The position numbers and the translations under genes were made by a program. From contig JARGFU010000001.1 of assembly GCA_029210625.1 (NCBI GenBank), positions 6,992 through 69,805 on the forward strand: a stretch of DNA of 62,814 nucleotides. Direction: 5' to 3'. This stretch comes from Deltaproteobacteria bacterium (GTDB lineage Bacteria; Myxococcota; Myxococcia; SLRQ01). The notes below the pieces were generated by a model. That model was given only the letters and a program-made list of their open reading frames with translations. It was not told where the DNA came from and searched no databases. Shown here piece after piece: positions 3,237 to 56,784 of the stretch (position 1 is its first letter; every line of letters starts with the position of its first letter).

Positions 3237-3468
3237 GGTTGGGTGGAATACGCCCGGCCCCCGTGGATGCCTGTGACTGCGGTCACCCGGCCATCGCTTT
3301 TTCAGCCATCCCCCGATCATGGCGGCGATCATCCTCCCTCGCGGAGGGCGCGCCAGTTTTTGGCGTGATGGGGATCACGGTGAGCCGCGAGCTGTGAGCT
3401 GTGAGCTACGAGCTGTCGGGCCGAGTGGCGCTTCGCAGCCTGGTTGGCAGTTGATATGGAGGCGCCTC

Positions 3469-15200: not shown

Positions 15201-15501
15201 CGGGCCGCGCTACGTCGAGGTGGCGACCCGCACCGGCGGCCTGAAGCGCTCGATCTGCTCCAGCAACTGGGGCCAGATCGCCGACGACCTCGGCCTCGAC
15301 GCCTTCGGCGCCCGCACCGAGTTCTTCCTCACCCGCGAGCCGATCCCCTCCACCATCGTGGTGAAGGTCAACGGCGTGACCGTGCAGTCGGCGGGCAACT
15401 GGAGCTACGACGGCAGCACCAACTCGGTCGTCTTCGATCCGGCCGCGGTGCCGGCGCAGGGTGCCACGATCGTCGTCGACTACGATACGATCTGCCGGTA
15501 G
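12256..15501 (+). CDS. Large lipoprotein with multiple Ig-fold repeats of the choice-of-anchor-D/ASH type and a C-terminal von Willebrand factor A domain
   Basis: ATG at 12256 preceded by AGGAG. Lipobox LGTNGCSC. Recurring LENCG/LSNPG/LENIG/VYNIG beta-sandwich signatures. VWA MIDAS motif DNSCSMS (DxSxS). Confidence 0.75.
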   Translation: MNVTMPRTLRSWTTPLILGAVLASFLGTNGCSCDGDGGLGDVKPEILALPNPVVFDRISVNIEASVQLMLKNDGNAVLEITGEPVLAENAEDGETELILRRIMLPVDCGTGAERVDDTPNTVDPGECVSVDVVYIPANLGPDTGTITVQSNDPDTPTLVVPIDAVGAAPDIEVCVLPSACSAESVCYEPGSGPLTMDFGLLQINDTATCPVSINNRGELPLANLDWSFKSGNRRGDYSLDPTDLGSGGDLEPGAGIIVNIEFSPRSGGPKDAVVEITSTDPDEAAVTIHLDGMGDGPKVCPDPFPAIDFGQVIVGTTDSIDVTLENCGTMQLSITAMEVQNQNGTGPSTEFALGAGAPGVPIDLAAGTSAAVPVEFTPPIEGYFTGRLYLESTDPVVPSGWVNIVGEGVVPPSCELQASTSTVSFGTAAPSGLGGTPVEKTLALSNPGELDCTGVTANITAGAAATFSIVGLPAGGPPWTLTPGTVVIFTLAYDPADTTGPDLGTVSFGANELAAPLDVNLTGTPVSAPSCDLAVTPATGNFSFNECALLSFTPRVAQFGAVKMGSDKTLPVSLENIGTRMCTVASATFQAAIPFFPPDPTFTLPNGGVPRVNGVPSANIAPGQVGTIDVLYTPVSEAANCGALWVQTDNVGQPSECLGITPAGDGCYNISMMGQGVRSAIEVIPGDVDFGVITVGCASRDTNVTVYNIGQAPMVLNNIYVDPATAPFSIVSAPPTPHTVPGGGSITIRMKYQPPDTNTHTGLLVLESDAQNGNYFTVPLEGKGTNDPHQTDTFQQLSEPMVDVLWVIDNSCSMSEEQSAIANNGNFFLSHALSLSTDFQIGVTSTDMEDPNHAGHLLGNPKIITRTTPNAVSAFGNNVDLGTGGSATEKGLDATHSALTDPLITDPAANGGFLRDDAKLVVIAVSDEADQSTPPVDFYVDFLKNIKGYRNTDLMSFSAIVGYDEQTNQPSQCTSANGDAASGPRYVEVATRTGGLKRSICSSNWGQIADDLGLDAFGARTEFFLTREPIPSTIVVKVNGVTVQSAGNWSYDGSTNSVVFDPAAVPAQGATIVVDYDTICR

Positions 15502-19762: not shown

Positions 19763-19828
19763 TCGAGCTGCGAGCTGTGAGCTGTGAGCCAGGTTGCTCA
19801 TTGCTCACAGCTCATAGCTGACAGCTAC
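19763..19828. terminator. Imperfect long hairpin built on (GAGCTGT) repeats between convergent genes; candidate bidirectional terminator
   Basis: gagctgtgagctgtgagc, then a loop, then gctcacagctcatagctgacagct. Stem is at least 11 bp. The same 18-mer occurs at 3389..3406. Confidence 0.45.
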
Positions 19829-25599: not shown

Positions 25600-26768
25600 T
25601 CTTCAGGCTCTCCCGGACCTCCGGGCTCCTCCTCCTCCCCCTCCTCCTCCCCCTCCTCCTCTCCCTCGCCTGCGGCGAGCCCACCGACGGCGGAGACGAC
25701 GGCGGCGGCACCGACGGGGGCGGCGGCGCGCCGGCCTTCGCCGTCGATCGCACCCTCTCGCTGGGCAGCTGCCTCAACGCGGGCGCGGTGACCGTCGAGG
25801 GCGGCAAGGCCTACGTGGCCTGCGGCGGGGACTTCACCGGCAACGGCGAGGTGGCCGTGGTCGATCTCGCCACCTGGACCATCGAGCAGCACATCGCCGT
25901 GGGCGGCGCGCCCGGCTCGATCACCGTCTCCGGTGACCGGATCTACCTCGGTGACATGCTCGACGGCCGGGTGCTGGTGGCCGGCACCGACGGCAGCGTC
26001 ATCCACGGCGCCGCCGACGCCGTGGTGATCTGCCCCTCGGACTTCGTCAACAACGTCTTCCAGTTCGTCCCCGACGTGGTGAAGATCGGAGACGTGCTCT
26101 ACGCCAGCTGCTTCGCCACCGACGAGGTGATCGCCTTCCAGCCCTCTGCCGGTGCGGATCCCGGCGACGGAACCCTCAACGCGACGATCCTCGGCCGGGT
26201 GACGGCCGGCGACGGCATCTCGGCCCTCGAGCCCTGGCACGCCAACGACCTGGTCGGCCTCGAGAACCTCTCCGGCGCGGCCTCCCACATCGGCACCGAT
26301 CCCCTCGGCGCCTCCACCAACTACTGGACCTGCGGCGATGTCCCCAACGATCTGAGGATCGAGGACGGCCTGGCCCACGTGGTGAACTCCGGCTCGAACA
26401 CCCTCCAGGTGATCGACCTCTCCGCCGTCTCCACCACCGCCGAGGTGCACCTGGGCGACGGCGCCAGCCCCTGGTCCCTGGCCCTCCTCGCCGACGGCCG
26501 CACCGCGGTCACCCTCCAGGGCACCGACGAGGTCGCCATCGTCGACACCGACCCCGCGACCCCGGCGAGCGAGGCGGTGCAGCAGACCGTGGCGATGCCC
26601 TCCGGCGCCGCGCTCGAGCCCTTCACCGGCATGACGCCCCTGGCCCACCCGCAGGGCATCGCGGTCACCGGCGCCGATCGCCTGGTGGTCTCGCTGACCA
26701 ACTTCGACGCGAACTTCGCCATCGCCGCGCCCGGGATGCTGGTCGAGCTGGTGGAGAGCACCCCCTGA
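25596..26768 (+). CDS. Surface/periplasmic lipoprotein, predicted beta-propeller (YVTN/NHL-like repeats)
   Basis: ATG at 25596 (ATGA overlap with the upstream receptor gene). AAAGGAAAC ribosome-binding site. Lipobox LLSLACG. Repeated G..V.V.D blade-like segments. Confidence 0.65.
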   Translation: MIFRLSRTSGLLLLPLLLPLLLSLACGEPTDGGDDGGGTDGGGGAPAFAVDRTLSLGSCLNAGAVTVEGGKAYVACGGDFTGNGEVAVVDLATWTIEQHIAVGGAPGSITVSGDRIYLGDMLDGRVLVAGTDGSVIHGAADAVVICPSDFVNNVFQFVPDVVKIGDVLYASCFATDEVIAFQPSAGADPGDGTLNATILGRVTAGDGISALEPWHANDLVGLENLSGAASHIGTDPLGASTNYWTCGDVPNDLRIEDGLAHVVNSGSNTLQVIDLSAVSTTAEVHLGDGASPWSLALLADGRTAVTLQGTDEVAIVDTDPATPASEAVQQTVAMPSGAALEPFTGMTPLAHPQGIAVTGADRLVVSLTNFDANFAIAAPGMLVELVESTP

Positions 26769-26938
26769 AGGATCGACGCGCCAGCCGGCGAGGGCCCCTG
26801 CGGGCCCTGCTGATCCTGACCCTCGCCGCGGGCCTCGCGCCCGCGGCCGGGGCCGCGCCGCGGGAGCCCTCCCGCCTGGGGCCGCCCCCCCCCGAGGTCC
26901 CGCACCGGATCGTCACCATCGCCCCGAGCCTCACCGAG

Positions 26939-27679
26939 GTGCTCATCGCCCTGGGCGCGGCCGATCGCATCGTGGGGGTGAGCCGCTACGACGAGTTCCC
27001 CGAGGTGGCGAAGGTCACCCGCATCGGCGGCTACGTGGACCCGGACCTCGAGACCATCCTCGGGCTGCGGCCCGATCTGGTGGTCGCCGAGCCGAGCCCG
27101 GGCAACGAGCGGGTGGTGCGCAAGCTCGCCTCCCTGGGGATCCCGGTCCGGGTGGTCCACGGGGCCTCGCTGGCCGAGCTGCGGCTGCAGGTCGAGGCCC
27201 TGGCCCGGGACCTGGGCCGCCCCGAGGCGGGCGTCCGCCTCCTCGAGACCCTGGAGGAGCGCCGGCTGCGGGTTCAGCTGGCCCTGGCCGGCGCCGCGCC
27301 CCGCCGCGCGCTGCTGGTGGTGGGGCACGAGCCCCTGGTGGTGGCCGCCCCCGGCTCGCTGGCCCACGAGCTCCTCGAGCTCTCGGGCGCGACGAACGTC
27401 GTCCCCCCGAGCGCCTCGCCCTATCCGGTCTACGCCCTCGAGGCCGCCATCGCCGCCGAGCCGGAGGTGGTCCTCGACTTCTCGGGCCGCCCCCTCTCCG
27501 AGCGCCCCGCCTCCCTCGCCACCCTCGGCGCGGTGAAGGCCGGGCGCTGGGTGCAGCTGGCCGACACCTCGCTCCTGCGGCCCGGGCCGGAGGTGATGCA
27601 CGCGGTCGAGGTGATGGCCCGCCGCCTCCACCCCGGCCGCTTCCCCCGGCCGCGCGCCCCGGAGGGCGAGCAGCCTTGA
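26939..27679 (+). CDS. Periplasmic substrate-binding protein of an ABC importer, BtuF/FhuD class; true start upstream at about 26771
   Basis: PBP class-III motifs (RIVTIAPSLTEVLIALGAADRIVGV). In the same frame upstream there is a Tat-like signal (RRASRRGPLRALLILTLAAGLAPAAG) with no ATG/GTG; CTG at 26765 is possible. Confidence 0.7.
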   Translation: MLIALGAADRIVGVSRYDEFPEVAKVTRIGGYVDPDLETILGLRPDLVVAEPSPGNERVVRKLASLGIPVRVVHGASLAELRLQVEALARDLGRPEAGVRLLETLEERRLRVQLALAGAAPRRALLVVGHEPLVVAAPGSLAHELLELSGATNVVPPSASPYPVYALEAAIAAEPEVVLDFSGRPLSERPASLATLGAVKAGRWVQLADTSLLRPGPEVMHAVEVMARRLHPGRFPRPRAPEGEQP

Positions 27680-28743
27680 GCACCCACGACACGGCCGCCG
27701 GACCCTCGGCCCCCGGCGCCCGCCTCACGGCCGGCCGCTTCCTGGGCTGGATGATCCTGCTCCTCGCGCTCCTCCTCGGGGCGATGATCCTGGCGCTCCT
27801 CCTGGGCAGCACCGAGCTCTCCCTGGGCGCGGCCCTGGAGGGGGCGGGCCCGGCCCGGGTGGTGCTCCTCGAGGTGCGCCTGCCCAGGGTGCTCCTCGGC
27901 GCGCTGGTGGGCGCGGGGCTGGGCGCCTCGGGCGCGGCCCTCCAGGCCATCCTGCGAAACCCCCTGGCCGACCCCTTCATCCTCGGCGTGAGCGGCGGCG
28001 CGGCGCTCGGCGGCACCGTGGCCCGGGCGCTGGCCACCGGCCTCTTCGGGGTGGCCGGGGGCACCCTCTGGCTGGGCCTGGGCTCCCACCTGGCCGCCAC
28101 CGCCGGCGCCCTCGGGGCGGTGGCCCTCACCTTCGGCATCGCCCGCGGCGCCGGCGGCGCCCGCCCCTACGCCCTGCTGCTGGCCGGGGTCGTCCTCAAC
28201 GCCTTCGCCTCGGCCCTGATCCTCTTCCTGCGGGCGGCGGTAGCCCAGGACAAGGCGCAGGAGCTGCTCTACTGGCTCATCGGCAGCCTGGGCTACCCGA
28301 CCCCCCTCGAGCTCGCCTCGGTGGCCGTGCTGGTGATCTGCGGCGGCGTCCTCCTCTCCCTCCTCGGCGGCACCCTGAACGTGCTCGCCCTCCAGGATCG
28401 CGGGGCGGCGGTGCTGGGCATCGACGCCGAGCGGATGCGCCTGCTGGTGATCGTCCTGACCTCGGTGATCGTCGGCACCACCGTCTCGCTCGCCGGCCTG
28501 GTGGGCTTCGTGGGCCTGATGGTGCCCCACTTCCTGCGCCTGCTGACCGGCCCCGACCACCGCCTGCTCCTCCCGGCGAGCCTCCTGGGCGGCGGCGCCT
28601 TCCTGGTGCTGGCCGATCTCTCCGCTCGCCTGCTATTTCGCTTCCTGGGCACCGAGCCCCCGGTGGGGGTGGTCACCGCCTTCCTCGGGGGGCCCTTCTT
28701 CCTCTGGCTCATGCGCCGACGCGGTGGGAGCACCCTCACATGA
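27676..28743 (+). CDS. ABC importer permease, FecCD/BtuC family
   Basis: FecCD signature (LAGVVLNAFASALILFL and related). 9-10 TM helices. ATGA overlap with the upstream gene. Confidence 0.85.
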   Translation: MSTHDTAAGPSAPGARLTAGRFLGWMILLLALLLGAMILALLLGSTELSLGAALEGAGPARVVLLEVRLPRVLLGALVGAGLGASGAALQAILRNPLADPFILGVSGGAALGGTVARALATGLFGVAGGTLWLGLGSHLAATAGALGAVALTFGIARGAGGARPYALLLAGVVLNAFASALILFLRAAVAQDKAQELLYWLIGSLGYPTPLELASVAVLVICGGVLLSLLGGTLNVLALQDRGAAVLGIDAERMRLLVIVLTSVIVGTTVSLAGLVGFVGLMVPHFLRLLTGPDHRLLLPASLLGGGAFLVLADLSARLLFRFLGTEPPVGVVTAFLGGPFFLWLMRRRGGSTLT

Positions 28744-29948
28744 CGAAGCGAAACGCCCTCTGGATGGCCCTCTTGCTCCTCGCCCTGGGAGGCCTGGCCG
28801 CCCTCGCGCGCCTCTCCGGCGAGGCGCCGCCCACCCCGGCCGGTGACGACGGGCAGACCCGGACCGACGCCGGCGCCGAGGCCTCACCACAGGCGGTGGT
28901 GGACCCCTCCCGCGAGTCCCTCCAGAGCCTGCGCAACAACCCGCCCCGGCGGATCGACGCCCACACCCACGTGGCGCCCGGCGATCTCGATGCGTTCATG
29001 AAGATCATGGAGGCCGCGGGCATCGACGGGATCGTGAACTTCTCGGGCGGCTTCCCGGGCGGCGGGCTGGAGCAGCAGCTCGAGGCCGCGGCGCGCTACC
29101 CCCACCGGGTCGCGGTGATGATGAACCTCGACTGGCGCAGCTTCGGCCGGCCCGGCTGGGTCGAGGCCCAGGTCGCGGCCCTGGAGCAGGGCAAGGCCCT
29201 GGGCGCCGCCGGCCTGAAGATCAGCAAGGCCCTGGGTCTGGGCGTGCGGCACCCCGACGGCAAGCTGCTCGCGGTCGACGATCCCCTCCTCGATCCGATC
29301 TTCGAGGCCTGCGGCCGGCTGGGCCTCCCGGTGGCGATCCACACCGGAGACCCCCGCGCCTTCTTCGACGCCCCCACCCCCGAGAACGAGCGCTACCTCG
29401 AGCTGCAGAAGAACCCGGGCTGGTCCTTCCACGGCAAGGACTTCCCGGAGTGGCGGGCGCTGCGCGAGGCCTTCCTCGCCCGCATCGGCCGCCACCCGAA
29501 GACCACCTTCATCGGCGTGCACTTCGGCAACTCCCCGGAGGACCCGCGCTGGGTGGCCGACGTGATGGACCAGTTCCCCAACCTCTACATCGACACCGCC
29601 GCCCGCCTGCCCGAGGTGCTGCGGCAGGAGGACCCCGTGCGCTGGCGCGAGACCCGGCGGGTCTTCGATCGCCACACCGAGCGGGTGCTCTTCGGCAGCG
29701 ACTCGATGCAGATGGGGGGCGAGCTGATCCTGGGCGCGCCCGGCGCCCGCAAGATGCACCGCACCGACGCCGCGGTCTTCTTCCGCACCCACTGGCGCCT
29801 CTTCCAGACCTCCGACTTCGACGTCCCCTCGCCCTCCCCGATCCAGGGCAAGTGGCCCCTGCGAAGCCTGGGGCTGAAGCGCAACCACCTCGAGCCCTTC
29901 TACCATGGCACCGCCGAGCGCCTCTTCCCCCAGCTCGCCACCCCCTGA
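28740..29948 (+). CDS. Exported metal-dependent amidohydrolase (Amidohydro_2-like TIM barrel) inserted inside the B12-transport operon
   Basis: N-terminal signal or anchor (LWMALLLLALGGLAALA). Metal ligands IDAHTHV, VAIHTGDP, GVHFGNS, LFGSDS. Confidence 0.75.
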   Translation: MTKRNALWMALLLLALGGLAALARLSGEAPPTPAGDDGQTRTDAGAEASPQAVVDPSRESLQSLRNNPPRRIDAHTHVAPGDLDAFMKIMEAAGIDGIVNFSGGFPGGGLEQQLEAAARYPHRVAVMMNLDWRSFGRPGWVEAQVAALEQGKALGAAGLKISKALGLGVRHPDGKLLAVDDPLLDPIFEACGRLGLPVAIHTGDPRAFFDAPTPENERYLELQKNPGWSFHGKDFPEWRALREAFLARIGRHPKTTFIGVHFGNSPEDPRWVADVMDQFPNLYIDTAARLPEVLRQEDPVRWRETRRVFDRHTERVLFGSDSMQMGGELILGAPGARKMHRTDAAVFFRTHWRLFQTSDFDVPSPSPIQGKWPLRSLGLKRNHLEPFYHGTAERLFPQLATP

Positions 29949-30777
29949 GCTGGCGCGGATCGAGGGGCTCGCCTTCGCCTACCCCGGCGGGCGCACCCTC
30001 TTCGCGGACCTCACGCTCGAGGTCCGGGGCGGCGAGCTCCTCGGCGTCCTCGGCCCCAACGGCGCGGGCAAGAGCACCCTCCTCTCGCTCCTCTGTGGCC
30101 TGGCGCGGCCGGCGGCCGGCCGCCTCTTCCTCGGCGGGGATCCCCTCGAGGGGCTCTCGCGCCGGGAGCTGGCTCGCCGGATCGCCCTGGTCCCCCAGGA
30201 CGTGGGCGCGGCCTTCCCCTTCACCGTCCTCCAGACGGTCCTCCTCGGGCGCACCCCCCACCTCGGTCCCCTGGGCATCGAGCGAGCCGAGGACCTCGAG
30301 CGGGCCGAGGCGGTCCTCGAGGAGACCGGCCTCTCGGCGCTGCGCGACCGCCCCATCGACGCCCTCTCGGGGGGCGAGCGGCAGCGGGTGCTGATCGCGC
30401 GGGCGCTCTGCCAGGACACCCCCCTGCTCGCCTGCGACGAGCCCACCTCGCACCTGGACATCCACCACCAGGTGAAGACCTACGACCTCTTCCATCGCCT
30501 GACCCGCGATCCGGCGCGGGGCGCCCTCTGCGTCCTGCACGACCTCAACCTCGCGGCGGCCTACTGCGACCGCATCCTCCTCCTCGACGCCGAGGGGAGG
30601 CAGGCCGCCCTCGGCCCCACCGAGGAGGTGCTCTCCTACGCCCTGCTCAAGGAGGTCTACCGCACCGAGATCTGGGTGGGCGTGAACGAGCTCACCGGCG
30701 CCCTGACCCTGGCCCCGGTCGCCGGGCATGATCGGGCGCCGCCGCCGGTTGGAGGTGGCCGGGTGGGGGATCGATGA
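29905..30777 (+). CDS. ABC transporter ATP-binding protein (BtuD/FecE class)
   Basis: Walker A GPNGAGKST. ABC signature LSGGERQRV. Walker B LLACDEPTSHLD. Confidence 0.85.
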   Translation: MAPPSASSPSSPPPELARIEGLAFAYPGGRTLFADLTLEVRGGELLGVLGPNGAGKSTLLSLLCGLARPAAGRLFLGGDPLEGLSRRELARRIALVPQDVGAAFPFTVLQTVLLGRTPHLGPLGIERAEDLERAEAVLEETGLSALRDRPIDALSGGERQRVLIARALCQDTPLLACDEPTSHLDIHHQVKTYDLFHRLTRDPARGALCVLHDLNLAAAYCDRILLLDAEGRQAALGPTEEVLSYALLKEVYRTEIWVGVNELTGALTLAPVAGHDRAPPPVGGGRVGDR

Positions 30778-38652: not shown

Positions 38653-40452
38653 ATGCGAGCGAAGATCGGCCTCGTCACCCTGCTGCTGATGGTCCTGGGT
38701 GGCTGCACCTGCGGCACCAAGGTGGATGACACGGTCACCGGCGTCCGGGTGACCGTCGACTACGAGCAGGCCCTGGGCCTCGATCAGCTGCGCTTCCTCG
38801 GTGAGCTCGAGAGTAGCCCCGGCGTCGCGGCCTTCCCCTCCGGCGTCTTCCCCGAGGATCCCACGCCCCTCGAGGCGGGCAGCGACAGCGTCGTGATCCT
38901 GGTAGACGAGGCCCTCGCCGGCGAGAACCTCATCATCACGGTCGAGGGGCTCTCCGGCGGCTCGGTCGTCGCGAGCGCCTCGACCACGGTCCCCCTGGTC
39001 CAGTCCGTGATCCGCGAGGCCAGCGTCAGCCTCACGGCGACGGCCAGCTGCGGCGACGGCACCTGCGACGCGGCCAGCGAGGACACCTGCTCCTGCCCCG
39101 CCGACTGCGGCGGCCCCGGGACCTGCGGCGACGACCTCTGCTGCGCCGGTGAGGGCGAGACCGCCACCACCTGCCCCGCCGACTGCGCCCCCCCCTCCTG
39201 CGGGGACAGCATCTGTGGCGTGGGCGAGGACCCCTGCTCCTGCCCGGGCGACTGCATCATCGACTCCTGCAGCGACGGCTGCTGCTCGGGGGCCGAGACC
39301 CTCGCGAGCTGCCCCGCCGACTGCTCGGTCTGCGGCGACGGCTCCTGCACCGGCAGCGAGGACGCCACCTCCTGCCCCGCCGACTGCGGCGGGGCGAACT
39401 GCGGCGACGGCACCTGCGACCCCACCGAGACCTTCGCCTCCTGCCCCGCCGACTGCTCGACCTGCAACACCGACGGCGCCTGCGACCCCACCGAGACCTT
39501 CGCCTCCTGCCCCGCCGACTGCTCGACCTGCGACGCCGACGGCACCTGCGACCCCACCGAGGACTTCGCCTCGTGCCCGGCCGACTGCGCCACCTGCAAC
39601 ACCGACGGCACCTGCGACCCCACCGAGACCTTCGCCTCCTGCCCCGCCGACTGCTCGACCTGCAACACCGACGGCGCCTGCGACCCCACCGAGACCTTCG
39701 CCTCCTGCCCCGCCGACTGCTCGACCTGCGACGCCGACGGCACCTGCGACCCCACCGAGACCTTCGCCTCGTGCCCGGCCGACTGCGCCACCTGCAACAC
39801 CGACGGCGCCTGCGACCCCACCGAGACCTCCCTCTCCTGCCCGACCGACTGCGTCTGCAACGCGGACGGCACCTGCGACGCCGGCGAGGACGCCACCAAC
39901 TGCGCCGCCGACTGCGCGGTCTGCACCAGCTGCGCCGGGGGGACATGCTCCGAGACCTGCGCCGCGAGCTGCAACCCCTCCTGCTCGAGCGGCTGCACCT
40001 GCGACTACGACTGCACCAGCCAGAACAACTGCAGCCCCTTCTGCCTCGACGGCGCCGACTGCACGATGAACTGCTCGGGCACCGCGGGCAACTGCTCCCC
40101 CGAGTGCTTCGGCAGCTCCACCTGCGCCGTCCTCTGCGAGAACTCCGGCAACACCTGCAACCTCGAGTGCCGGGACAGCGCCACCTGCAGCTCCACCTGC
40201 ACCGGCCCGACCAGCTGCGATGCGCACTGCCACGATCAGGCCACCTGCGACTACGACTGCGCGAACATCACCACCGGCAGCTGCACCGGCGTCCGCTGCG
40301 AGAGCGACGGCGGCTGCCTGCTCAACTGCGGGAGCGTGCCGACCACCAACTGCAGCTTCGACCGCTGCCGGGACAGCCAGGGCAACAACTTCACTCCGGT
40401 GGACTGCTACGGCGACGGCACGCTCTTCGCCTGCAACCGCGCCTGCCCCTGA
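38653..40452 (+). CDS. Lipoprotein made of tandem Cys-rich repeats (SCPADCSTCNTDGACDPTETFA type)
   Basis: ATG at 38653. Lipobox LMVLGGCTCG. About 7 near-identical 20-aa repeats, then further Cys-rich modules to the C-terminus. Confidence 0.75.
   Translation: MRAKIGLVTLLLMVLGGCTCGTKVDDTVTGVRVTVDYEQALGLDQLRFLGELESSPGVAAFPSGVFPEDPTPLEAGSDSVVILVDEALAGENLIITVEGLSGGSVVASASTTVPLVQSVIREASVSLTATASCGDGTCDAASEDTCSCPADCGGPGTCGDDLCCAGEGETATTCPADCAPPSCGDSICGVGEDPCSCPGDCIIDSCSDGCCSGAETLASCPADCSVCGDGSCTGSEDATSCPADCGGANCGDGTCDPTETFASCPADCSTCNTDGACDPTETFASCPADCSTCDADGTCDPTEDFASCPADCATCNTDGTCDPTETFASCPADCSTCNTDGACDPTETFASCPADCSTCDADGTCDPTETFASCPADCATCNTDGACDPTETSLSCPTDCVCNADGTCDAGEDATNCAADCAVCTSCAGGTCSETCAASCNPSCSSGCTCDYDCTSQNNCSPFCLDGADCTMNCSGTAGNCSPECFGSSTCAVLCENSGNTCNLECRDSATCSSTCTGPTSCDAHCHDQATCDYDCANITTGSCTGVRCESDGGCLLNCGSVPTTNCSFDRCRDSQGNNFTPVDCYGDGTLFACNRACP
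39410..39850 (+). repeat. ~60-bp near-perfect tandem repeat, about 7 copies, inside the CDS
   Basis: Period 60 nt (tgcgaccccaccgagaccttcgcctcctgccccgccgactgctcgacctgcaacaccgacggcgcc). Not a CRISPR array: no unique spacers, and it is coding. Confidence 0.85.
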
Positions 40453-40522: not shown

Positions 40523-42586
40523 TCAGCCCCGCCGGCGGCGGGTGCGCAGGGCCAGCAGGCCACCGATCAGCGCGAGGCCGAGGAGGCCGGGCCGGCCCTC
40601 GCCGGTGCTGCCGCAGTCGCAGCCCTCGCCCTCCTCGGGCGGCTCGGCGCCGCAGTCGCTGTCATGCTCCTCGCAGCCCGCGGGGCAGCAGCCGTCGTCC
40701 GGGACGCAGGCGGTGATGGCGCTGCGCGTGCAGAGCAGATCGCAGCTCGCGGCCGAGCCGAAGGCCGCGTCGGCGGTGCAGGCGTCGCCGTCGTCACAGG
40801 ACGCCGGGCAGTCCCCGTCGCAGGTCTCGCCGCCCTCGACGATCCCGTTGCCGCAGGTCTGCGCCGCGCAGTCGCTGTCGTTGGCTGAGGTGCACCCCGG
40901 CGCGCAGCAGCCGTCCCCCGAGGTGCAGGCGCCGATGGCGTCGTTCCGGCAGGCGAGATCGCAGGTCTCGGAGGAGCCGGTCATGGCGTCGGTGGTGCAG
41001 ACGTCGCCGTCGTCGCAGGTCGCCGGGCAGTCCCCGTCGCAGGTCTCGCCGGCCTCGACCACCCCGTTGCCGCAGGTGGCGGGCGAGGCGCAGTCCGAGT
41101 CGCCCGCTGCCGCGCAGCCGCCGGGGCAGCAGCCGTCGCCTCCGATGCAGGCGCTGATCCGGGCGTTGACGCAGACCAGGTCACAGGTGGAGAACTCACC
41201 GGTCTGGCTGTCGATGGTGCAGGCGTCCGCGTCGTCGCAGGTCGTGGGGCAGTTCCCGTCGCAGATCTCGCTCCCCTCGACGACCCCGTTGCCGCAGACC
41301 GGCGCGCTGCCGCAGTCGTCGTCGTTCTGCCAGGTGCAGCCGGGCGCACAGCAGCCGTCGCCGTTGGTGCACGCCGTGATCGAGGCGTGGGTGCAGGCCA
41401 TGTCACAGGTGGAGGGATCGCCCGCCTGCTGGTCGGTGGTGCAGGCGTCGCCGTCGTCGCAGGTCGAAGGGCAGATGGCGAGCGGATCGCAGGTCTCCCC
41501 GGCCGCGGTGTTCAGGGTGCCGTCGTCGCAGGCCACGAAGGTGCAGTCGGCGTCACAGGTGGCGGTCTGGCCGCCCTCGTCGCAGTCCTCGCCGGCGTCG
41601 ACGAAGCCGTTGCCGCAGCCCCCACTGGCGCAGTCGGAGTCGTTGCCCGGGTTGCAGCCCGGGGCGCAGCAGCCGTCGCCGCCGGTGCAGGTCGTGATCG
41701 GGGCGTTGGTGCAGGCCAGGTCACAGGTGGCCGCGCTGCCGGTCTGGCTGTCGCTGGTGCAGACGTTGCCGTCGTCGCAGGTGCCCGGGCAGCTCGAGAT
41801 GGGATCGCAGGTCTCCCCGGCCGTGGTGTTCAGGGTGCCGTCGTCGCAGACCACGGCGGTGCAGTCGGCGTCGCAGGTGGCCGACTCGCCCCCGTCGTCG
41901 CAGGCCTCCGTCCCCTCGACGCTGCCGTTGCCGCAGACCGCCGTGGAGCAGTCCGGATCGGCGCCGTCGTAGACGTCGTCCCCGTCGTTGTCGAGGCCCT
42001 CGGTGAGGCCAGCGAAGTCCTCGCTCCCGTCGAGGTTGCAGGGATCGGTGGGGATCGAGGGGTGACCGGTGCCGGGGCTGGCGTAGTAGGGCGGTGAGAT
42101 CTCCTCCCCCACGGGGGTGTAGTTGACCGGGTTGGCGTCCTGGTGGCAGCTGGCGCAGACGGTGGTCCCCTTGCGGTAGTGGTGCTGACGCAGCCCGGCT
42201 CCGCGGCCCCCGTAGGAGGGGAAGTCCGGGTTGGAGGAGGTGTTGTCCTCCTCCCGCCCGTGGCAGCCCACGCAGGCGATGGCCAGCAGCCCCGCGCCGC
42301 CGTTCGAGCTGTTCAGCAGCACCGGGAAGCGACTCGGCCCGTGGCAGGTGTCGCAGTCACCACCGAGCATGTCCGCGCGGTGGATCACATGATTGTTGCC
42401 CCAGCTCTGCCCGTCGGTGCTGGAGGTGTAGCTGTTGGAGCGGAAGTCACCATGGCAGGCACGGCAGTTGGTGGCGTCCTTGTTCTGGCTGTACCGGTCG
42501 TAGGCGCGCGCCTCACCGGGCCCGAACGATAGGAACAAGGCGATCGCGATCAGGGCAGAGACCTTCCAGAGCGACTTCGCGTTCAT
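40523..42586 (-). CDS. Secreted tetra-heme c-type cytochrome domain fused to Myxococcus cysteine-rich repeats, with a MYXO-CTERM tail
   Basis: Signal peptide. Four CxxCH motifs (CRACH, CDTCH, CVGCH, CASCH) in the first ~180 aa. About 6 repeats of the CGNGxVExGExCD...CDDGDxCTxD...GDGCCAPGC type. Terminal [33 protein letters not shown]. Confidence 0.8.
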
Positions 42587-44884: not shown

Positions 44885-45535
44885 CTAGGGGCAGTTCACG
44901 TCGTTGTAGGTGTTGAAGGGCTCGCCGCCGGGGGCGGACGCCTCCTCCCCGATCCGGCCGGTGGGGCAGGTGCCGCCGGTCGTGCCGTCCTCGGTGGAGA
45001 TGAACCAGGTGTCCACGTTCGAGTCGTCGTCGAGGTTCCCCGCGGCCACGGCGGTGAAGCCGCAGACGGGGCAGAGCCCCTCGTCCTGGACGCCCGGCAG
45101 GGTCGTCATGGTCCCCACCGGCGACTGCCAGGTCACCGAGGGCATGCTGCCCCAGCCGGGGTTCGGGTTGGCCGTGGCGAACTTGAAGGTGTCCACCGAG
45201 ACGTACTCGGCGTTGCTGGCCGCGACCTCGGAGCCCACGGGATCGGTGCGATCGACCGAGTTCGCGGCGGTCCCCGAGTAGAAGGCGAAGCGGTTCGGCC
45301 GCTCGGGGCTGAAGCCCACGATCAGGATCTTGGAGGTGTACTCGTCGAACTCGGTGTAATAGGCCTTCTCGGCCGAGAAGAGCGCCTTGAGGTTGCTCTT
45401 GGCCTCGGACTGTCGGGCCTTGGCCTGGAACCGAACGAAGTTCGGGATCGCGATGGCGGCGAGGAGGCCGATGATGGCCACCACGATCATGAGCTCGATG
45501 AGGGTGAATCCACTCCCCGGGAACTTCCGACCCAT
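44885..45535 (-). CDS. pilA: Type IVa major pilin PilA
   Basis: Prepilin leader ending G|[24 protein letters not shown]. Strongly similar to M. xanthus PilA across its whole length, including the C-terminal Cys pairs. ATG at 45535; the GTG at 45547 is the alternative start. Confidence 0.85.
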
Positions 45536-45607
45536 CTTCCCTTGCACTTCCCCAGGCTAACGGATGAGGCCGAGGATTCGCAACTTAGGCAGGTTCTGGC
45601 TTGCGCG

Positions 45608-52197: not shown

Positions 52198-53277
52198 TCA
52201 GGCGACGACACGCAGGGGCCTCCCGGCGCGGCTCGGTCGCGCCCGCCAGCAGCCGGGGTCGGCGTGGTAGGGGCTGCCGTGGGCGGCCTGGGAGAGGCAG
52301 CGCAGGCCGCCGCCGCAGACCCTGGCGTGGAGGCAGCCCTCGCAGCCCTCGGCGTTGCGCTCCGGCTCCCGCAGCTCCCGCAGGAGCGGGCTCTGGTAGT
52401 AGAGCTCCGTCATGCTCCGGGAGCGCAGGTTCCCCACCGGCAGGGGCATCCGGCGGCAGGGGACGAGGGTGCCGTCGGGCAGCACGGTCAGCAGGCTCTT
52501 GCCCGCCGTGCAGCGGTAGGGACGCTCGCCGCCCTCCAGGAACTGCAGCGTGCGGTGCATGGCGATCTCGGGCGGGAAGATCAGCCAGCTCTTTCGCATG
52601 AGCTCCTGCGTTCGCCGCATCGATCGGAGGAAGCGGCGGGTCTCCTCGGGGGCGGGGCTGCGGAGCCCGCCGACGCTTCCCTGCCCCTCGGGGATGAGCC
52701 GGTCGGCCCAGACCCGATCGACCCCCAGCCGCTGCCCCAGCCGCGCGACCTTCCGGAACTCCCCCAGGTTCCCCGAGTGGGCGGTGAAGGAGAGGAAGAC
52801 CCGGATCCCGTGTCCGAGCAGGTGGCGGATGCCCCCGACGCTCTGCGCGTGACTCCCCTTGCCCCGGATCTCGTCGTGGACCTTCCGGCTCCCCTCGATG
52901 CTCACCTGCACGAAGCTCGGCCGGAGGGCCCGGAGGCGCGCTGCCCGCTCCTCGTCGATGAGGGTGTCGTTGGTGAGGAGAGCCCAGGAGTGCCGGTGGC
53001 GGTGACGGGCCAGCTCCTCGCAGAGCTCGAGGAGATCCTTGCGGGCGAAGGGCTCGCCGCCGGTGAGGGTGACGTGGCCTCGCAGCTCCGGCTGCCCGCG
53101 CTCCTCTCCGTAGCGGGTGAGCAGCTCGTGGTACTGCTCCAGGATCCGCAGCAGGTCCCGGTAGGGGAGCTCCTCGCCGCGGTAGCCCTCCTGGTAGCAG
53201 TGGTGGCAGCGCAGGTTGCAGCGCTCGGTGAGGTGCCACTGGAGGAGGAGGCCGGACTTGTAGTCGTGGTTGCACAT
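52198..53277 (-). CDS. Radical SAM/SPASM-domain enzyme (peptide-modifying maturase class)
   Basis: ATG at 53275-53277. CNLRCHHC (CxxxCxxC) inside LLLQWHLTERCNLRCHHCY. C-terminal 7-Cys SPASM cluster (CTAG...CRRM...CEGCLHARVCGGGLRC). TGATG coupling to the upstream gene. Confidence 0.85.
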   Translation of the reverse strand: MCNHDYKSGLLLQWHLTERCNLRCHHCYQEGYRGEELPYRDLLRILEQYHELLTRYGEERGQPELRGHVTLTGGEPFARKDLLELCEELARHRHRHSWALLTNDTLIDEERAARLRALRPSFVQVSIEGSRKVHDEIRGKGSHAQSVGGIRHLLGHGIRVFLSFTAHSGNLGEFRKVARLGQRLGVDRVWADRLIPEGQGSVGGLRSPAPEETRRFLRSMRRTQELMRKSWLIFPPEIAMHRTLQFLEGGERPYRCTAGKSLLTVLPDGTLVPCRRMPLPVGNLRSRSMTELYYQSPLLRELREPERNAEGCEGCLHARVCGGGLRCLSQAAHGSPYHADPGCWRARPSRAGRPLRVVA

Positions 53278-53771
53278 CAGCCGCACCCCCCACAGCCGCC
53301 GCAGCCGCCGCAGCCCCCGCCGCAGCCACCTCCGCAGCCCCCACCCCCGTTCACGCTGACGGCGAAGGCCGCCTGCACCGAGGCGCCCACCGCGAGGAGG
53401 CCGACCCCGTGGACCGCCACCGCCAGCGCCGGATCGACGCCCGCGCTCGCCCAGTCGATGGAGGAGCTGGCGCTCATCCAGCGTAGCTCCTCCCTCAGGT
53501 GCTTCAGCAGCCGGCGGCCCAGGGTGGTCGCCTTCCCGGAGGTGGGCCGCAGGATCCCGGCGAAGAGGTAGGCGGTCCCCGCCAGGAGGAAGGGGAGGAT
53601 GCCCATCGGCCGGTCGAGCGTCAGGCCGAGGAGCGCCTTGATCGACCCGAGGAGCAGGCAGACCGTCATCGGCAGGTAGGTGATCCAGGCCGCCCGCTGC
53701 TCGTCCGCCGCGCTCTGCAGCAGCCGGCGCTCCACGAGGTCCTCGCGGACCCTCGAGAGGGTGTCCTCCAC
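53277..53771 (-). CDS. Membrane protein segment (3 TM) ending in a pure Gly/Cys tail NGGGGCGGGCGGGCGGCGGCGGCG; in frame with the 53856..54149 ORF across a TAG
   Basis: Read from GTG at 53771 to TGA at 53277-53279. TM helices ITYLPMTVCLLLGSIKALLGL, ILPFLLAGTAYLFAGIL, ALAVAVHGVGLLAVGASVQAAFAV. Tail is 23 residues of G/C only. Confidence 0.6.
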   Translation of the reverse strand: MEDTLSRVREDLVERRLLQSAADEQRAAWITYLPMTVCLLLGSIKALLGLTLDRPMGILPFLLAGTAYLFAGILRPTSGKATTLGRRLLKHLREELRWMSASSSIDWASAGVDPALAVAVHGVGLLAVGASVQAAFAVSVNGGGGCGGGCGGGCGGCGGCGGCG

Positions 53772-54211: not shown

Positions 54212-54238
54212 TTGACAACTTGGCCATGTTGCCACATG
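54212..54238. promoter_or_regulatory. Operator/promoter TTGACAACTTGGCCATGTTGCCACATG in the divergent region (candidate ArsR/SmtB site)
   Basis: Imperfect palindrome CAACTTGGCCATGTTG embedded between -35-like TTGACA and -10-like hexamers. A near-identical copy lies at 54592..54618. Confidence 0.55.
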
Positions 54239-54265
54239 AATCGTGCGTCTCACTCCGGAGAAGCC

Positions 54266-54562
54266 ATGCCCTGTTCCGACGACAAGGTCTTCAAGCAGCA
54301 AGCGCGGGTGCTCAAGGCCCTCGCCAACGCCTCGCGCCTGAAGATCGTCGACCGGCTCTCCCGGGGGGAGTGCTCGGTCGGAGAGCTCACCGAGCTGGTC
54401 GGCTCGGACCGCTCCACCGTCTCCAAGCACCTCGCGGTGCTGCGCAGTCACGGGATCGTCGAGGACCGCCGGGAGGGCAACGTCGTCTACTACTCGCTCC
54501 TGACGCCCTGCGTGATGAACTTCTTCTCCTGTGCCACCCAGGTCCTCGAGGAGCGCAGCTGA
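54266..54562 (+). CDS. ArsR/SmtB-family metalloregulator
   Basis: HTH region LKALANASRLKIVDRL...ECSVGELTELVGSDRSTVSKHL. Carries Cys residues N-terminally (MPCSDD) and C-terminally (CVMNFFSC). Confidence 0.85.
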   Translation: MPCSDDKVFKQQARVLKALANASRLKIVDRLSRGECSVGELTELVGSDRSTVSKHLAVLRSHGIVEDRREGNVVYYSLLTPCVMNFFSCATQVLEERS

Positions 54563-54591
54563 TGGTCCCCGCGGTTTTTTTTGAGCCAATA

Positions 54592-54618
54592 TTGCCAACT
54601 TGGCCATATTGCCATGCA
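54592..54618. promoter_or_regulatory. Second operator copy TTGCCAACTTGGCCATATTGCCATGCA, upstream of the permease gene
   Basis: 20/23 positions match the 54212 site, with the same TTGNCA...TTGCCA framing. Confidence 0.55.
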
Positions 54619-55811
54619 CTTCCGGCGAGGGCCTCCCGGTGAAGGAGCGAAGCAAGCTGCTGCTCATGCTGGCGGTCTTCGCCGCCTGCTGGTTCCTGCC
54701 GGTGGACAGCGAGCGCTTCCTGTCGGCGGTCGGCGAGGGCCTGAAGCTCACCCGGTGGTACGCCCGGGAGCACGTGCTGCTCTGCCTGGTGCCGGCCTTC
54801 TTCATCGCCGGCGCCATCAGCGTCTTCGTCAGCCAGGGCTCGGTGATGAGGTACCTCGGCCCGGCCGCGAGGAAGCTCGTCGCCTACCCGGTGGCCGCGG
54901 TCTCCGGCACCATCCTGGCGGTCTGCTCCTGCACGGTGCTGCCCCTCTTCGCGAGCATCCACCAGCGCGGCGCCGGCCTCGGCCCGGCCACCGCCTTCCT
55001 CTACTCCGGGCCGGCCATCAACGTGCTGGCGATCATCCTCACGGCGCGAGTGCTGGGCCTCGAGCTGGGCATCGCCCGCGCGGTCGGGGCGATCACCTTC
55101 TCGGTGATCATCGGCCTGCTCATGCACCTCTTCTTCCGCAAGGAGGAGGCCGCCCGTCAGGCCGAGGGCATGGTCCTGATGCCGGTCGAGGAGCGGGGCC
55201 GGACGCTCTGGCAGGAGGGCGTCTACTTCGCCGCCCTGGTCGGCATCCTGGTCTTCGCCAACTGGGGCGCTCCGGCCGAGAAGGACACGGGCGTCTGGAC
55301 CAGCGTCCACTCGGTGAAGTGGATCGTCACCGGCGGGTTCGCCCTCGTCCTCGTCTTCTCCCTCTGGCGTTGGTTCGAGCGGGACGAGCTTGGCGACTGG
55401 ACCGAGTCGAGCTGGACCTTCGCCAAGCAGATCATGCCGCTGCTCCTGGCTGGCGTGCTCGTCGCGGGCTTCCTGCTCGGTGGCCCCGATGGCGGCCGCG
55501 GCGTGATCCCCGACGAGTGGGTCGCCTCGATGGTGGGCGGCAACTCGCTGGGCGCCAACCTCTTCGCTTCGGTGGCGGGCGCCCTGATGTACTTCGCCAC
55601 CCTCACCGAGGTGCCCATCCTGGAGGGGCTCCGCAGCTCGGGCATGGGGAAGGGACCCGCGCTGGCGCTGCTGCTCGCGGGTCCGGCGCTCTCCCTGCCC
55701 AACATGCTCGTCATCCGAAGCGTGATGGGCACCCGGAAGACCCTGGTGTTCATCGGGCTGGTGATCGTGCTCTCAACCCTCGCAGGTCTGCTCTACGGAG
55801 CGCTGTTCTAG
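54600..55811 (+). CDS. COG0701/DUF318-type permease (the two-CPxC-motif permease commonly found in ArsR-linked clusters)
   Basis: 8-10 TM helices. AVCSCTVLPLF motif. Start uncertain: TTG 54600, GTG 54639 or ATG 54666. Confidence 0.8.
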   Translation: MAILPCTSGEGLPVKERSKLLLMLAVFAACWFLPVDSERFLSAVGEGLKLTRWYAREHVLLCLVPAFFIAGAISVFVSQGSVMRYLGPAARKLVAYPVAAVSGTILAVCSCTVLPLFASIHQRGAGLGPATAFLYSGPAINVLAIILTARVLGLELGIARAVGAITFSVIIGLLMHLFFRKEEAARQAEGMVLMPVEERGRTLWQEGVYFAALVGILVFANWGAPAEKDTGVWTSVHSVKWIVTGGFALVLVFSLWRWFERDELGDWTESSWTFAKQIMPLLLAGVLVAGFLLGGPDGGRGVIPDEWVASMVGGNSLGANLFASVAGALMYFATLTEVPILEGLRSSGMGKGPALALLLAGPALSLPNMLVIRSVMGTRKTLVFIGLVIVLSTLAGLLYGALF

Positions 55812-55820
55812 GAGGTCGTG

Positions 55821-56069
55821 ATGAAGGTCGAGATCCTGGGAACCGGATGTGCCAAGTGCCAGAAGCTCTACCGGCTGGTGGAGCAGGCCGTCGCCGACAC
55901 CGGCTCGGACGCCGAGGTGGTGAAGGTCGAGAAGATGGACGAGATCATGAGCTACGGCGTGCCCTTCACGCCGGCCCTGGTCATCGACGGTACCGTGAAG
56001 TCGGTGGGCAACCTCCCGAAGCCCGCCCAGCTCGAGGCCTGGCTCCGGGAAGGCGCGGGCCAGCGCTGA
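55821..56069 (+). CDS. Thioredoxin-fold redox-active disulfide protein 2-like small protein (CxxC)
   Basis: ATG with GGAGG 6 nt upstream. MKVEILGTGCAKCQKL. Confidence 0.85.
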   Translation: MKVEILGTGCAKCQKLYRLVEQAVADTGSDAEVVKVEKMDEIMSYGVPFTPALVIDGTVKSVGNLPKPAQLEAWLREGAGQR

Positions 56070-56076
56070 AGCGCCG

Positions 56077-56784
56077 ATGCTTGACGAGCTGGTTCAGAAC
56101 GCGGGTCAGTACATCGACACGAACCCGTGGCTCGCCATCGCGGCGGTCTTCGTCGGCGGCCTGCTGACGGCCTCGAACCCCTGCGTCCTCGCCATGATCC
56201 CGCTGACGATGAGCTTCGTGGCCGGCCGGCGGGAGGAGAGGCCCGGGGTGCTCCGCGCGCTCGGCTTCTCCTCCGTCTTCGTCCTGGGGCTCTCCCTCAC
56301 CTTCACCGCGCTGGGCATGGTCGCCGCGCTCGCCGGCCAGCTCTACGGCGACGTCTCCAGCGCCTGGAACTGGGTGGTCGCCGCCGTCTGCGGGGTGATG
56401 GGGCTCCACCTGATGGGCGTGGTGACCGTGCCCATCCCCTCGCTGGCCGGCCGGATCCAGCCGAGGACCCGCGGCCTGCTCGGCGCGCTGATCCTCGGCC
56501 TGCTCTTCGGGCTGGTCTCCGCGCCCTGCGCGGCGCCGATCCTCGTCGTCCTGCTCACCTACCTGGCCGGCTCGGGCGCCTCGGTGGCGTACGGCGGCCT
56601 GCTGCTGCTCGTCTACGCCCTCGGCCACAGTCTGCTGATCCTCATCGCCGGCACCTCCATGGGCGCCGCGCGCACCCTCATCGAGAACAAGAAGATGACC
56701 GGGACCCTGGCCATCCTGCGCAAGGGCGCGGGCGTCGTGATCGTCCTGGTCGGGCTCTACTTCGGCTATCGAGGTCTGTCATGA
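56077..56784 (+). CDS. CcdA/DsbD-family transmembrane thiol-disulfide electron transporter
   Basis: Two conserved TM Cys residues (TASNPCVLAMIP and VSAPCAAPIL). 6 TM helices. Confidence 0.85.
   Translation: MLDELVQNAGQYIDTNPWLAIAAVFVGGLLTASNPCVLAMIPLTMSFVAGRREERPGVLRALGFSSVFVLGLSLTFTALGMVAALAGQLYGDVSSAWNWVVAAVCGVMGLHLMGVVTVPIPSLAGRIQPRTRGLLGALILGLLFGLVSAPCAAPILVVLLTYLAGSGASVAYGGLLLLVYALGHSLLILIAGTSMGAARTLIENKKMTGTLAILRKGAGVVIVLVGLYFGYRGLS

Follow-up and report, generated by a model that had tools for sequence, protein, structure and literature searches.

A predicted tetraheme cytochrome head on a cysteine-rich stalk with a MYXO-CTERM sorting signal in a Deltaproteobacteria bacterium

A 62,814-nucleotide stretch of a Deltaproteobacteria bacterium genome (GenBank assembly GCA_029210625.1, contig JARGFU010000001.1, positions 6,992 to 69,805 of the forward strand; hereafter the window, with positions counted from its first nucleotide) contains a minus-strand open reading frame (ORF) at 40523..42586 that comprises 687 codons and a stop codon. 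An earlier note made from the sequence alone had read the product as a secreted tetraheme cytochrome c fused to Cys-rich repeats and a MYXO-CTERM tail. The ATG at 42586 is preceded by the Shine-Dalgarno sequence GGAGGAGG, located 6 nt 5′ of the start codon, and the GC content at third codon positions (GC3) is 0.94 as in genuine genes of this 72% GC window. Homologues were recovered for both halves of the 687-amino acid (aa) minus-strand product, and for this product only; the overlapping plus-strand ORF at 40542..41972 was rejected as a high-GC shadow ORF. Cys residues account for 11.6% of the whole protein.

The features of the protein, all encoded on the minus strand, were delimited as follows. 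The Sec signal peptide (aa 1–28; 42503..42586) was read from the sequence as an n-region with Lys-4 and Lys-8, a hydrophobic core and an ARA cleavage motif (GEARA/YDRYS). Residue Ala-28 is kept in 92% of 194 non-identical relatives, and the AlphaFold2 (AF2) model places a helix at aa 3–21 within the signal peptide. The putative tetraheme c-type head (aa 29–195; 42002..42502), defined by a match to Pfam Cytochrom_c3_2, conservation and AF2 modeling, includes the heme motifs CRACH (Cys-41, aa 41–45; 42452-42466), CDTCH (Cys-78, aa 78–82; 42341-42355), CVGCH (Cys-105, aa 105–109; 42260-42274) and CASCH (Cys-144, aa 144–148; 42143-42157). The head domain ends with an acidic motif, GLDNDGDxxYDxxDxDC (aa 196–215; 41942..42001), that was recognized by conservation and by a weak NF033662 match. 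The stalk consists of five units that each start with CGNG: two long repeats of 106–107 aa with 16 Cys (repeat 1, aa 218–323, 41618..41935; repeat 2, aa 324–430, 41297..41617), then three short repeats of 73–74 aa with 12 Cys (repeat 3, aa 431–504, 41075..41296; repeat 4, aa 505–577, 40856..41074; repeat 5, aa 578–651, 40634..40855). The CGNG start marks every unit, the DNA repeat period delimits repeats 1 to 3, and the AF2 model covers repeats 3 to 5. The count of five supersedes the approximately six repeats that had been suggested. The protein finishes with the MYXO-CTERM sorting signal (aa 652–687; 40526..40633) which scored 22.4 bits with TIGR03901 against an NCBIfam cut-off of 20 over residues 654–685 of 687, so that the tail proposed previously stands. 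In addition to the N-terminal signal peptide, the protein possesses the three-part tail of a GCDCG motif, a hydrophobic helix and an RTRRRRG Arg cluster, a layout that has been described for MYXO-CTERM proteins (PMC11980579).

The earlier note had acknowledged that its interpretation would collapse if the CxxCH motifs were chance occurrences in Cys-rich repeats, with neither distal His ligands nor conservation in orthologues. The test was performed and the motifs are not chance. Shuffling of the whole protein produced a mean of 0.15 CxxCH motifs compared to the four observed, and four or more were obtained in 0 of 20,000 shuffles. When the head alone, with its 10 Cys residues, was shuffled the mean was 0.023. 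Eight of these 10 Cys lie in CxxCH motifs, whereas the stalk has 68 Cys and zero CxxCH. All four motifs are invariant in a 121-sequence alignment of the head family, are 99–100% conserved in the 194 non-identical relatives and also are invariant among relatives that are devoid of any Cys-rich repeats. Within the same 194 sequences, His-69 and His-136 are 100% conserved, and His-135, His-175 and Met-73 are retained in 89, 92, and 90%, respectively. Residue His-66 is present in 95%, with the remaining 10 sequences all possessing Met at this position. Met is the other classical heme ligand beside His, and the exchange of His-66 solely for Met thus is the pattern expected of a heme axial ligand. 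As each of the nine His residues in the head is either the His of a CxxCH motif or a conserved candidate sixth ligand, the distal positions that chance motifs would lack are accounted for.

Hidden Markov model (HMM) searches, which had been recommended as a check, gave results that depended on the segment scanned. When aa 1–217 were scanned alone, Cytochrom_c3_2 (PF14537) matched with 28.4 bits against a gathering cut-off of 25, the segment fell slightly under the cut-offs of the cytochrome c7 and MtrC/MtrF II–IV models, and PF22113 scored 28.4 bits compared to its cut-off of 30. Pfam and NCBIfam scans of the whole protein revealed no cytochrome domain and likewise no family in the Cys-rich relatives P0203 and P0244, which probably is an effect of the HMMER composition filter. 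As whole-protein scans miss the head, automatic annotation would probably overlook the cytochrome and label its carriers as hypothetical proteins. The AF2 model of the head, calculated with the family alignment, had a predicted local distance difference test score (pLDDT) of 89.2 and a predicted template modeling score (pTM) of 0.80. Coil predominates in the model, and short helices occur at the CxxCH motifs as well as in the HxxHRxxM and GAGLRQHH segments, both of which are elements of the head signature YxxYS…CxxCHGxF…WG…HxxHRxxM…GAGLRQHH…PPYY…HP…GLDNDGD. The acidic motif that terminates this signature matched the NF033662 acid_disulf_rpt model weakly (21 bits; cut-off 41), and a match was noted in 69 of the 121 family members. 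Residues Asp-199, Asn-200, Asp-201, Gly-202, Asp-207, Asp-210, and Cys-213 are 94–97% conserved and Cys-183 is conserved in 99%. Residues Cys-183 and Cys-213 are the sole conserved non-heme Cys of the head and flank the acidic motif, which probably is a Ca-binding loop closed by a Cys-183–Cys-213 disulfide, with both loop and disulfide being predictions. Overall, the conserved motifs and ligands and the above-threshold Pfam match indicate that the head is a genuine multiheme c-type cytochrome domain that is predicted to carry four hemes, which bears out the central element of the initial interpretation. Heme loading, the assignment of the sixth ligands and the disulfide pattern are predicted from the sequence.

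The distribution of the head was assessed independently of the remainder of the protein. A search with aa 1–217 retrieved 429 proteins, the best of which were 60–69% identical, and which mostly were 230–340 aa in length and nearly all of metagenomic origin. Exactly four CxxCH motifs were present in 118 of the 120 top homologues with the first motif at median position 42; thus, the head invariably occupies the N-terminus. Species-representative genomes yielded 218 relatives when scanned, and the genomic locus analyses described here concern the best 80 of these, all from metagenome-assembled genomes (MAGs). The hosts were assigned to Krumholzibacteriota, Eisenbacteria, Acidobacteriota, Planctomycetota/Phycisphaerae, Gamma- and Alphaproteobacteria, Nitrospirota, Binatia, Gemmatimonadota, Latescibacterota, Verrucomicrobiota, and Myxococcota/Polyangiaceae. 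In the 121-member alignment, the C-terminal tags comprised the type A C-terminal domain (CTD) of the type IX secretion system (T9SS) in 53 proteins, MYXO-CTERM in eight, PEP-CTERM in ~5 and a GC-type dockerin in five. When tails were read directly in 82 genomic copies, which represented more than 10 phyla, T9SS, MYXO-CTERM, PEP-CTERM, and dockerin tags were encountered again, together with several kinds of Cys-rich repeats, Ig-like repeats and, in a small number of copies, extra multiheme modules that raise the CxxCH count to as many as 14. The proteins P0333, L032, and L051, each with 14 CxxCH motifs, are examples in which the head is fused to such modules, and P0333 displayed MtrC/F-like matches of 61 bits. 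As the sequence that follows the head varies and no operon is shared between loci, a surface-sorting signal is the one constant partner of the head. Extracellular location is a property of the head family. Moreover, the strict retention of motifs and ligands across more than 10 phyla in combination with variable C-terminal parts points to selection on the heme domain itself. The family is uncurated: it matches no dedicated model, spans more than 10 phyla, and is confined almost wholly to uncultured bacteria. Some MAGs harbor tandem or several head copies (L041, 10001-10612 and 11232-11891; L071; L012), for example two that are adjacent in an Eisenbacteria MAG and two that are separated by 2 kb in a Thermodesulfovibrionia MAG.

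The long repeats of the stalk are visible at the DNA level as a 318-nt period (2.1 copies, 80% matches) and the short repeats as a 222-nt period (3.2 copies, 77% matches). The unit of ~73 aa and 12 Cys follows the pattern CGNGvVExGETCD…CPxxCDDGxaCTxDxxxGSxxxCxxxCxxxxIxxCxxGDGCCPxGCxxxxDSDC. The repeats had been attributed to the Myxococcus repeat family TIGR02232, and this attribution was not upheld: neither TIGR02232 nor DUF4215 matched the stalk when the whole protein or single repeats were compared with Pfam and NCBIfam at E-values up to 1–10. Among the relatives, P0241 (34.2 bits), P0087, and P0319 are recognized by the same models, and the resemblance of the target to the TIGR02232 model is limited to the opening CGNGxVExGExCD. 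Both long repeats begin with an extra TIGR02232-like half unit, and it is TIGR02232 that scores in P0241. A search with aa 218–687 recovered no fewer than 2,428 proteins, the highest score being 864 bits, and those with a named source were mostly from Polyangia, Sandaracinaceae, and other Myxococcota. Up to 12 repeat copies occur in one protein. The stalk elsewhere is joined to CAP domains, an arabinofuranosidase catalytic domain, lamin-tail and Kelch domains, and class I cytochromes c, and many carriers are N-terminal lipoproteins composed of repeats only. A regular expression for MYXO-CTERM-like tails identified 2 of 120 and 15 of 128 stalk proteins in two sets. The AF2 model of the three short repeats had a pLDDT of 90.5 and a pTM of 0.50 with one β-hairpin per repeat. 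This combination of high local and low global confidence is as expected for small independent domains arranged as beads on a string, and the confident folding of each repeat as one small domain is consistent with the stalk that had been proposed. A Foldseek search of the model against the PDB produced no match. The stalk is a separate, widespread module for which there is no curated Pfam or NCBIfam model.

The combination of head, stalk and tail was sought by searching the full-length protein against 1.84 billion cluster representatives. The exact protein is not on record, none of the collections searched contained an orthologue with more than 69% identity, and the closest relatives from genomes and metagenomes were 49–69% identical. 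Nevertheless, the architecture was found in four further proteins: P0257 (412 aa), which has two stalk repeats and a match to the GC_trans_RRR/MYXO-CTERM model; P0244 (626 aa) with four repeats, and P0203 (626 aa) with four repeats plus two TIGR02232-like units, each of which ends in a MYXO-CTERM-like tail read from the sequence; and P0241 (1044 aa, N-terminally truncated) with 10 repeats and a MYXO-CTERM score of 25 bits. The fusion described previously as an unusual architecture is therefore present, but it is not a one-off. The head, stalk and MYXO-CTERM architecture is, by these sequence matches, real and recurrent in metagenomes, in unrelated gene neighborhoods, with a stalk whose length changes rapidly. 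Other redox domains also are found on the stalk. Protein P0260 has a different head with five CxxCH motifs that is weakly ExtKL-like, followed by approximately six stalk repeats and MYXO-CTERM, and in P0202, P0209, and P0224 four or five repeats are framed on both sides by class I cytochrome c domains. Redox heads on the stalk seem to be a recurring theme in Myxococcota.

Electron transfer at the cell surface is considered, with moderate confidence, to be the most likely function of the protein. The grounds are that there are sufficient conserved His and Met residues for six-coordination of the hemes, that relatives include multiheme fusions, and that every lineage exports the head. In the mechanism envisaged, the precursor would be exported via the Sec signal peptide and cut after ARA28. 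In the periplasm the 190-aa head would acquire four hemes, each bound covalently at a CxxCH motif, with sixth ligands provided by His-66, His-69, His-135, His-136, His-175, and Met-73. All hemes then would be six-coordinate, a state that suits electron transfer rather than substrate binding. The five disulfide-rich repeats, whose 68 Cys could form up to 34 disulfides, would fold separately as a non-conducting spacer. According to work on other MYXO-CTERM proteins, the precursor is held in the inner membrane by its helix, and lipidation is presumed to occur on the invariant Cys (PMC11980579). [quoted passage not shown] Cleavage by MrtX and T2SS-dependent surface display have been demonstrated experimentally for TraA and MXAN_4924 (PMC11980579), and the lipidation and secretion route suggested here is drawn by analogy with TraA. 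As the anchor is C-terminal, the heme head would be positioned at the far tip of the stalk. The head might exchange electrons with metal oxides, humic substances, other cells or extracellular cytochromes, either by contact or as a tethered shuttle and with no continuous wire, and might itself receive electrons by collision with surface cytochromes, soluble shuttles or external donors. The redox partner and the physiological role are postulated. The earlier note also had entertained redox sensing at the surface. This was set aside: the protein has no signaling domain, and once myxosortase had cleaved it no transmembrane segment would be left as a link, which argues against sensing.

A number of observations weigh against surface electron transfer. 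The insulating stalk would place the hemes far from the membrane, which leaves the electron route to the head unexplained. Many myxobacteria are aerobic and have no need of mineral respiration. The 62.8-kb window encodes no other CxxCH protein and includes no genes for a porin-cytochrome conduit, for cytochrome maturation (ccm/ResBC), for MrtX or for the T2SS (gsp). When ORFs within 10 kb of the 80 head loci were clustered, no gene family was found in more than five loci, and the neighbors of three same-architecture genes had nothing in common with each other or with the window. Sequence and family-profile searches of PDB chains at E-values up to 10 identified no cytochrome relative of the head, and fold searches with the head model produced no match, so that likeness to known electron-transfer folds is unsupported. 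Literature searches on cytochromes with MYXO-CTERM, T9SS or PEP-CTERM signals turned up no account of the head family or the architecture, and neither came up in a term search of an in silico myxosortase paper.

The isolated position of the gene, with respiratory partners absent nearby, would fit with a surface-displayed protein that acts as a non-respiratory extracellular reductase or oxidase, for example in assimilatory Fe(III) reduction that serves iron uptake, redox attack or defense against prey or competitors, or the handling of peroxide and other reactive oxygen species. In further agreement, the stalk bears hydrolases, CAP domains and other non-respiratory heads, the Myxococcota host genome is rich in secreted and surface proteins (PMC11495043), and a TonB-ABC cluster of the iron/heme/B12 type is situated 10–17 kb away, though nothing ties it to the cytochrome. 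However, the conserved His and Met residues suffice for four six-coordinate hemes which argues against an open catalytic site, and the head also is found in anoxic-sediment lineages and in fusions with large multiheme modules. A non-respiratory role is regarded as rather improbable on balance, but is a serious rival. Small multiheme cytochromes of the c3/c7 type usually are periplasmic, and the MYXO-CTERM helix might merely be the C-terminal anchor of a periplasmic carrier on the inner membrane. Such a location agrees with the residence of the uncleaved precursor in the inner membrane in the published model and with the lack of T2SS and mrtX genes in the window. It is unlikely given that the T9SS CTD, PEP-CTERM and dockerin tags of relatives all target beyond the outer membrane, that the 435-aa disulfide stalk would be hard to accommodate in the periplasm, and that the MYXO-CTERM clients tested so far arrive at the surface (PMC11980579).

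Two further readings are progressively less likely than a periplasmic carrier. In one, the protein is a structural or adhesive surface component whose hemes are structural or serve as an iron or heme store without electron transfer. Most stalk proteins have no redox domain and many are repeats only, and acidic Ca-type motifs with Cys-rich repeats are typical of adhesins; the strict conservation of motifs and ligands over more than 10 phyla while the C-terminal part varies makes this very unlikely. In the other, no heme is bound and the CxxCH motifs are accidents of a Cys-rich sequence, as the high overall Cys content and the empty whole-protein Pfam scan might suggest. The shuffling results, the confinement of the motifs to the Cys-poor head and their invariance in relatives that lack the repeats reduce the probability of this reading almost to nil, and the empty scan probably reflects the composition filter.

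Surface electron transfer invites comparison with characterized systems. Functionally the closest are MtrC and OmcA of Shewanella, which are multiheme c-type cytochromes that are delivered by the T2SS and lipid-anchored on the outer face of the outer membrane, as is predicted for the target. The HMMs for MtrC/F domain II/IV and for the OmcA/MtrC family match the target weakly and partially. However, MtrC and OmcA have ten hemes compared to the four predicted for the target, possess an N-terminal lipobox instead of a C-terminal MYXO-CTERM signal, and dock directly on the MtrAB conduit with no stalk, whereas the target has no mtrAB-like neighbors. Assignment to the MtrC/OmcA group was rejected on the basis of the four hemes, the missing lipobox, the sub-threshold PF22113 score and TIGR03507 matches with weak E-values only. 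PgcA of Geobacter sulfurreducens, an extracellular lipoprotein, bears its heme domains on repetitive non-redox linkers, a design termed “tethered heme”; it has three hemes between Pro-Thr repeats, an N-terminal lipid anchor and flexible linkers. The target differs from PgcA in having disulfide-rich repeat domains in place of flexible linkers. The class III c3/c7 cytochromes (PF14537, PF14522, PF02085) resemble the target as small low-complexity folds with several bis-His CxxCH hemes, and Cytochrom_c3_2 of this class is the sole Pfam model matched above threshold. These proteins are soluble, periplasmic and 70–120 aa in length, whereas the target head is ~190 aa with its own signature and surface-sorting tags.

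Architecturally the closest protein is TraA of Myxococcus xanthus, a receptor for kin recognition and the MYXO-CTERM client studied best, with a signal peptide, N-terminal head, Cys-rich repeats and MYXO-CTERM (PMC13184517). The TraA head is a polymorphic recognition domain in contrast to the cytochrome head of the target, and the repeats of the two proteins are alike in layout. In size and heme number the nearest match is OmcE of Geobacter and Desulfuromonas, an extracellular protein of ~200 aa with four hemes that, like the head model described above, is largely coil (~80%) with short helices (10.1101/2025.10.22.684050). OmcE polymerizes and is not anchored, whereas the target is proposed to be anchored, and the OmcE gene cluster contains other cytochromes, β-propeller lipoproteins and a β-barrel of which there is no counterpart at the target locus. 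Membership of the OmcE/OmcS/OmcZ nanowires was rejected as there was no sequence or fold likeness and no conserved gene cluster. Overall, the target passes only generic tests for a multiheme cytochrome and for MYXO-CTERM.

A broader proposal can be put forward tentatively. The head may be the myxobacterial form of an unrecognized, phylum-spanning class of surface-sorted tetraheme proteins in which one conserved 190-aa heme module became linked with no fewer than four unrelated C-terminal sorting systems (T9SS, myxosortase, exosortase/PEP-CTERM and dockerin). Uncultured bacteria of soils and sediments could share this module as a terminal component for exchanging electrons with the exterior. 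The protein of Myxococcota might then be a tethered shuttle on a length-variable, non-conducting disulfide stalk that reaches past the polysaccharide layer, and not a membrane-docked wire. Surface multiheme cytochromes are the best-understood route for respiring minerals and electrodes, and knowledge of them derives mostly from Shewanella and Geobacter. A head accompanied by a sorting tag would make it simple to flag, from sequence, possible redox activity outside the cell in groups that are not thought to be electroactive, namely Krumholzibacteriota, Eisenbacteria, Binatia, Polyangia, and Phycisphaerae. As whole-protein HMM scans miss the Cys-rich versions, surveys of genes for extracellular electron transfer will under-count them. 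An activated-sludge MAG survey reported many unassigned secreted multiheme proteins, some of which were in Myxococcota (PMC11495043). The novel aspects are the uncurated head family, the uncurated stalk repeat, and a C-terminal lipid-anchor route that was not linked previously to cytochromes; redox cargo thereby is added to the list of MYXO-CTERM/myxosortase clients, and the question is raised of how electrons are supplied to a heme domain at the end of an insulating stalk. As a surface-anchored multiheme cytochrome, the protein is of an already known kind, with a function that we infer from sequence.

The cytochrome gene is divergent from a formate-tetrahydrofolate ligase (FTHFS) gene that is 60 bp distant and is convergent with a Cys-rich lipoprotein gene (38653..40452, plus strand), the stop codons being 70 bp apart. 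The gene appears monocistronic, and a promoter and terminator scan at this locus in 72% GC DNA found nothing. The earlier note correctly recognized the neighbor at 38653..40452 as a Cys-rich repeat lipoprotein, but its description as divergent was mistaken and the protein is unlike the stalk: the pairwise E-value was 0.013, which is not significant. The lipoprotein has an LGGC lipobox and 15.4% Cys, matches no Pfam or NCBIfam model, and contains a 66-nt (22-aa) repeat, CDPTETFASCPADCSTCxxDGx, in 7.2 tandem copies with 89% identity. A link with the cytochrome was rejected as the genes are convergent, the proteins are not homologous and the lipoprotein has this repeat of its own. The nearby genes specify a ceramidase-family membrane protein, methyltransferases, a cyclic nucleotide monophosphate (cNMP)-binding protein, a PilA-type pilin, response regulators and GGDEF proteins. 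The pilin (44885..45547, minus strand; 220 aa) is a type IV pilin with a Pilin_PilA score of 103.6 bits, and a distance of 2.3 kb separates its gene from that of the cytochrome; the genes on either side specify the cNMP-binding protein, a response regulator and GGDEF proteins, and no further pil genes are near it.

Two other MYXO-CTERM proteins are encoded in the window, which, along with its GC content and the taxonomy of stalk relatives, speaks for a host in Myxococcota. The 688-aa protein at 19828..21894 (minus strand; 10.5% Cys) has a matrixin-like zinc protease head with the motif HEMGHxxGLxH that weakly matches MXAN_2677/2678, a family of myxosortase-dependent metalloproteases. Beyond this head lie Cys-rich segments of a different type and TSP3-like DxDxDG motifs, and the tail reads GCFCG…LLFRRRRR. 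The second, at 3319..5022 (plus strand; TIGR03901, 23.4 bits), has a SpoIID/LytB-like domain and a segment that resembles an anammox S-layer glycoprotein. The TonB-ABC cluster mentioned above (23593..30777, plus strand) is of the iron-siderophore/heme/B12 type and encodes a TonB-dependent receptor, Peripla_BP_2, a FecCD permease and an ABC ATPase, with an amidohydrolase gene between those for the permease and the ATPase. A row of genes at 54212..56784 (plus strand) specifies an ArsR-like regulator, a permease that is SO_0444/SaoE-like below the cut-off, an MTH895/ArsE-type thioredoxin-like protein and a DsbD/CcdA-like protein; the last is the sole thiol-redox membrane component in the window and is not a recognizable cytochrome maturation gene product. 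A small membrane protein at 53277..53771 (minus strand) has a C-terminal tail of pure Gly and Cys, GGGGCGGGCGGGCGGCGGCGGCG. Finally, the gene at 12268..15501 (plus strand) specifies a large lipoprotein that contains five choice-of-anchor D domains and, at its C-terminus, an adhesin region that is MIDAS/VWA-like.

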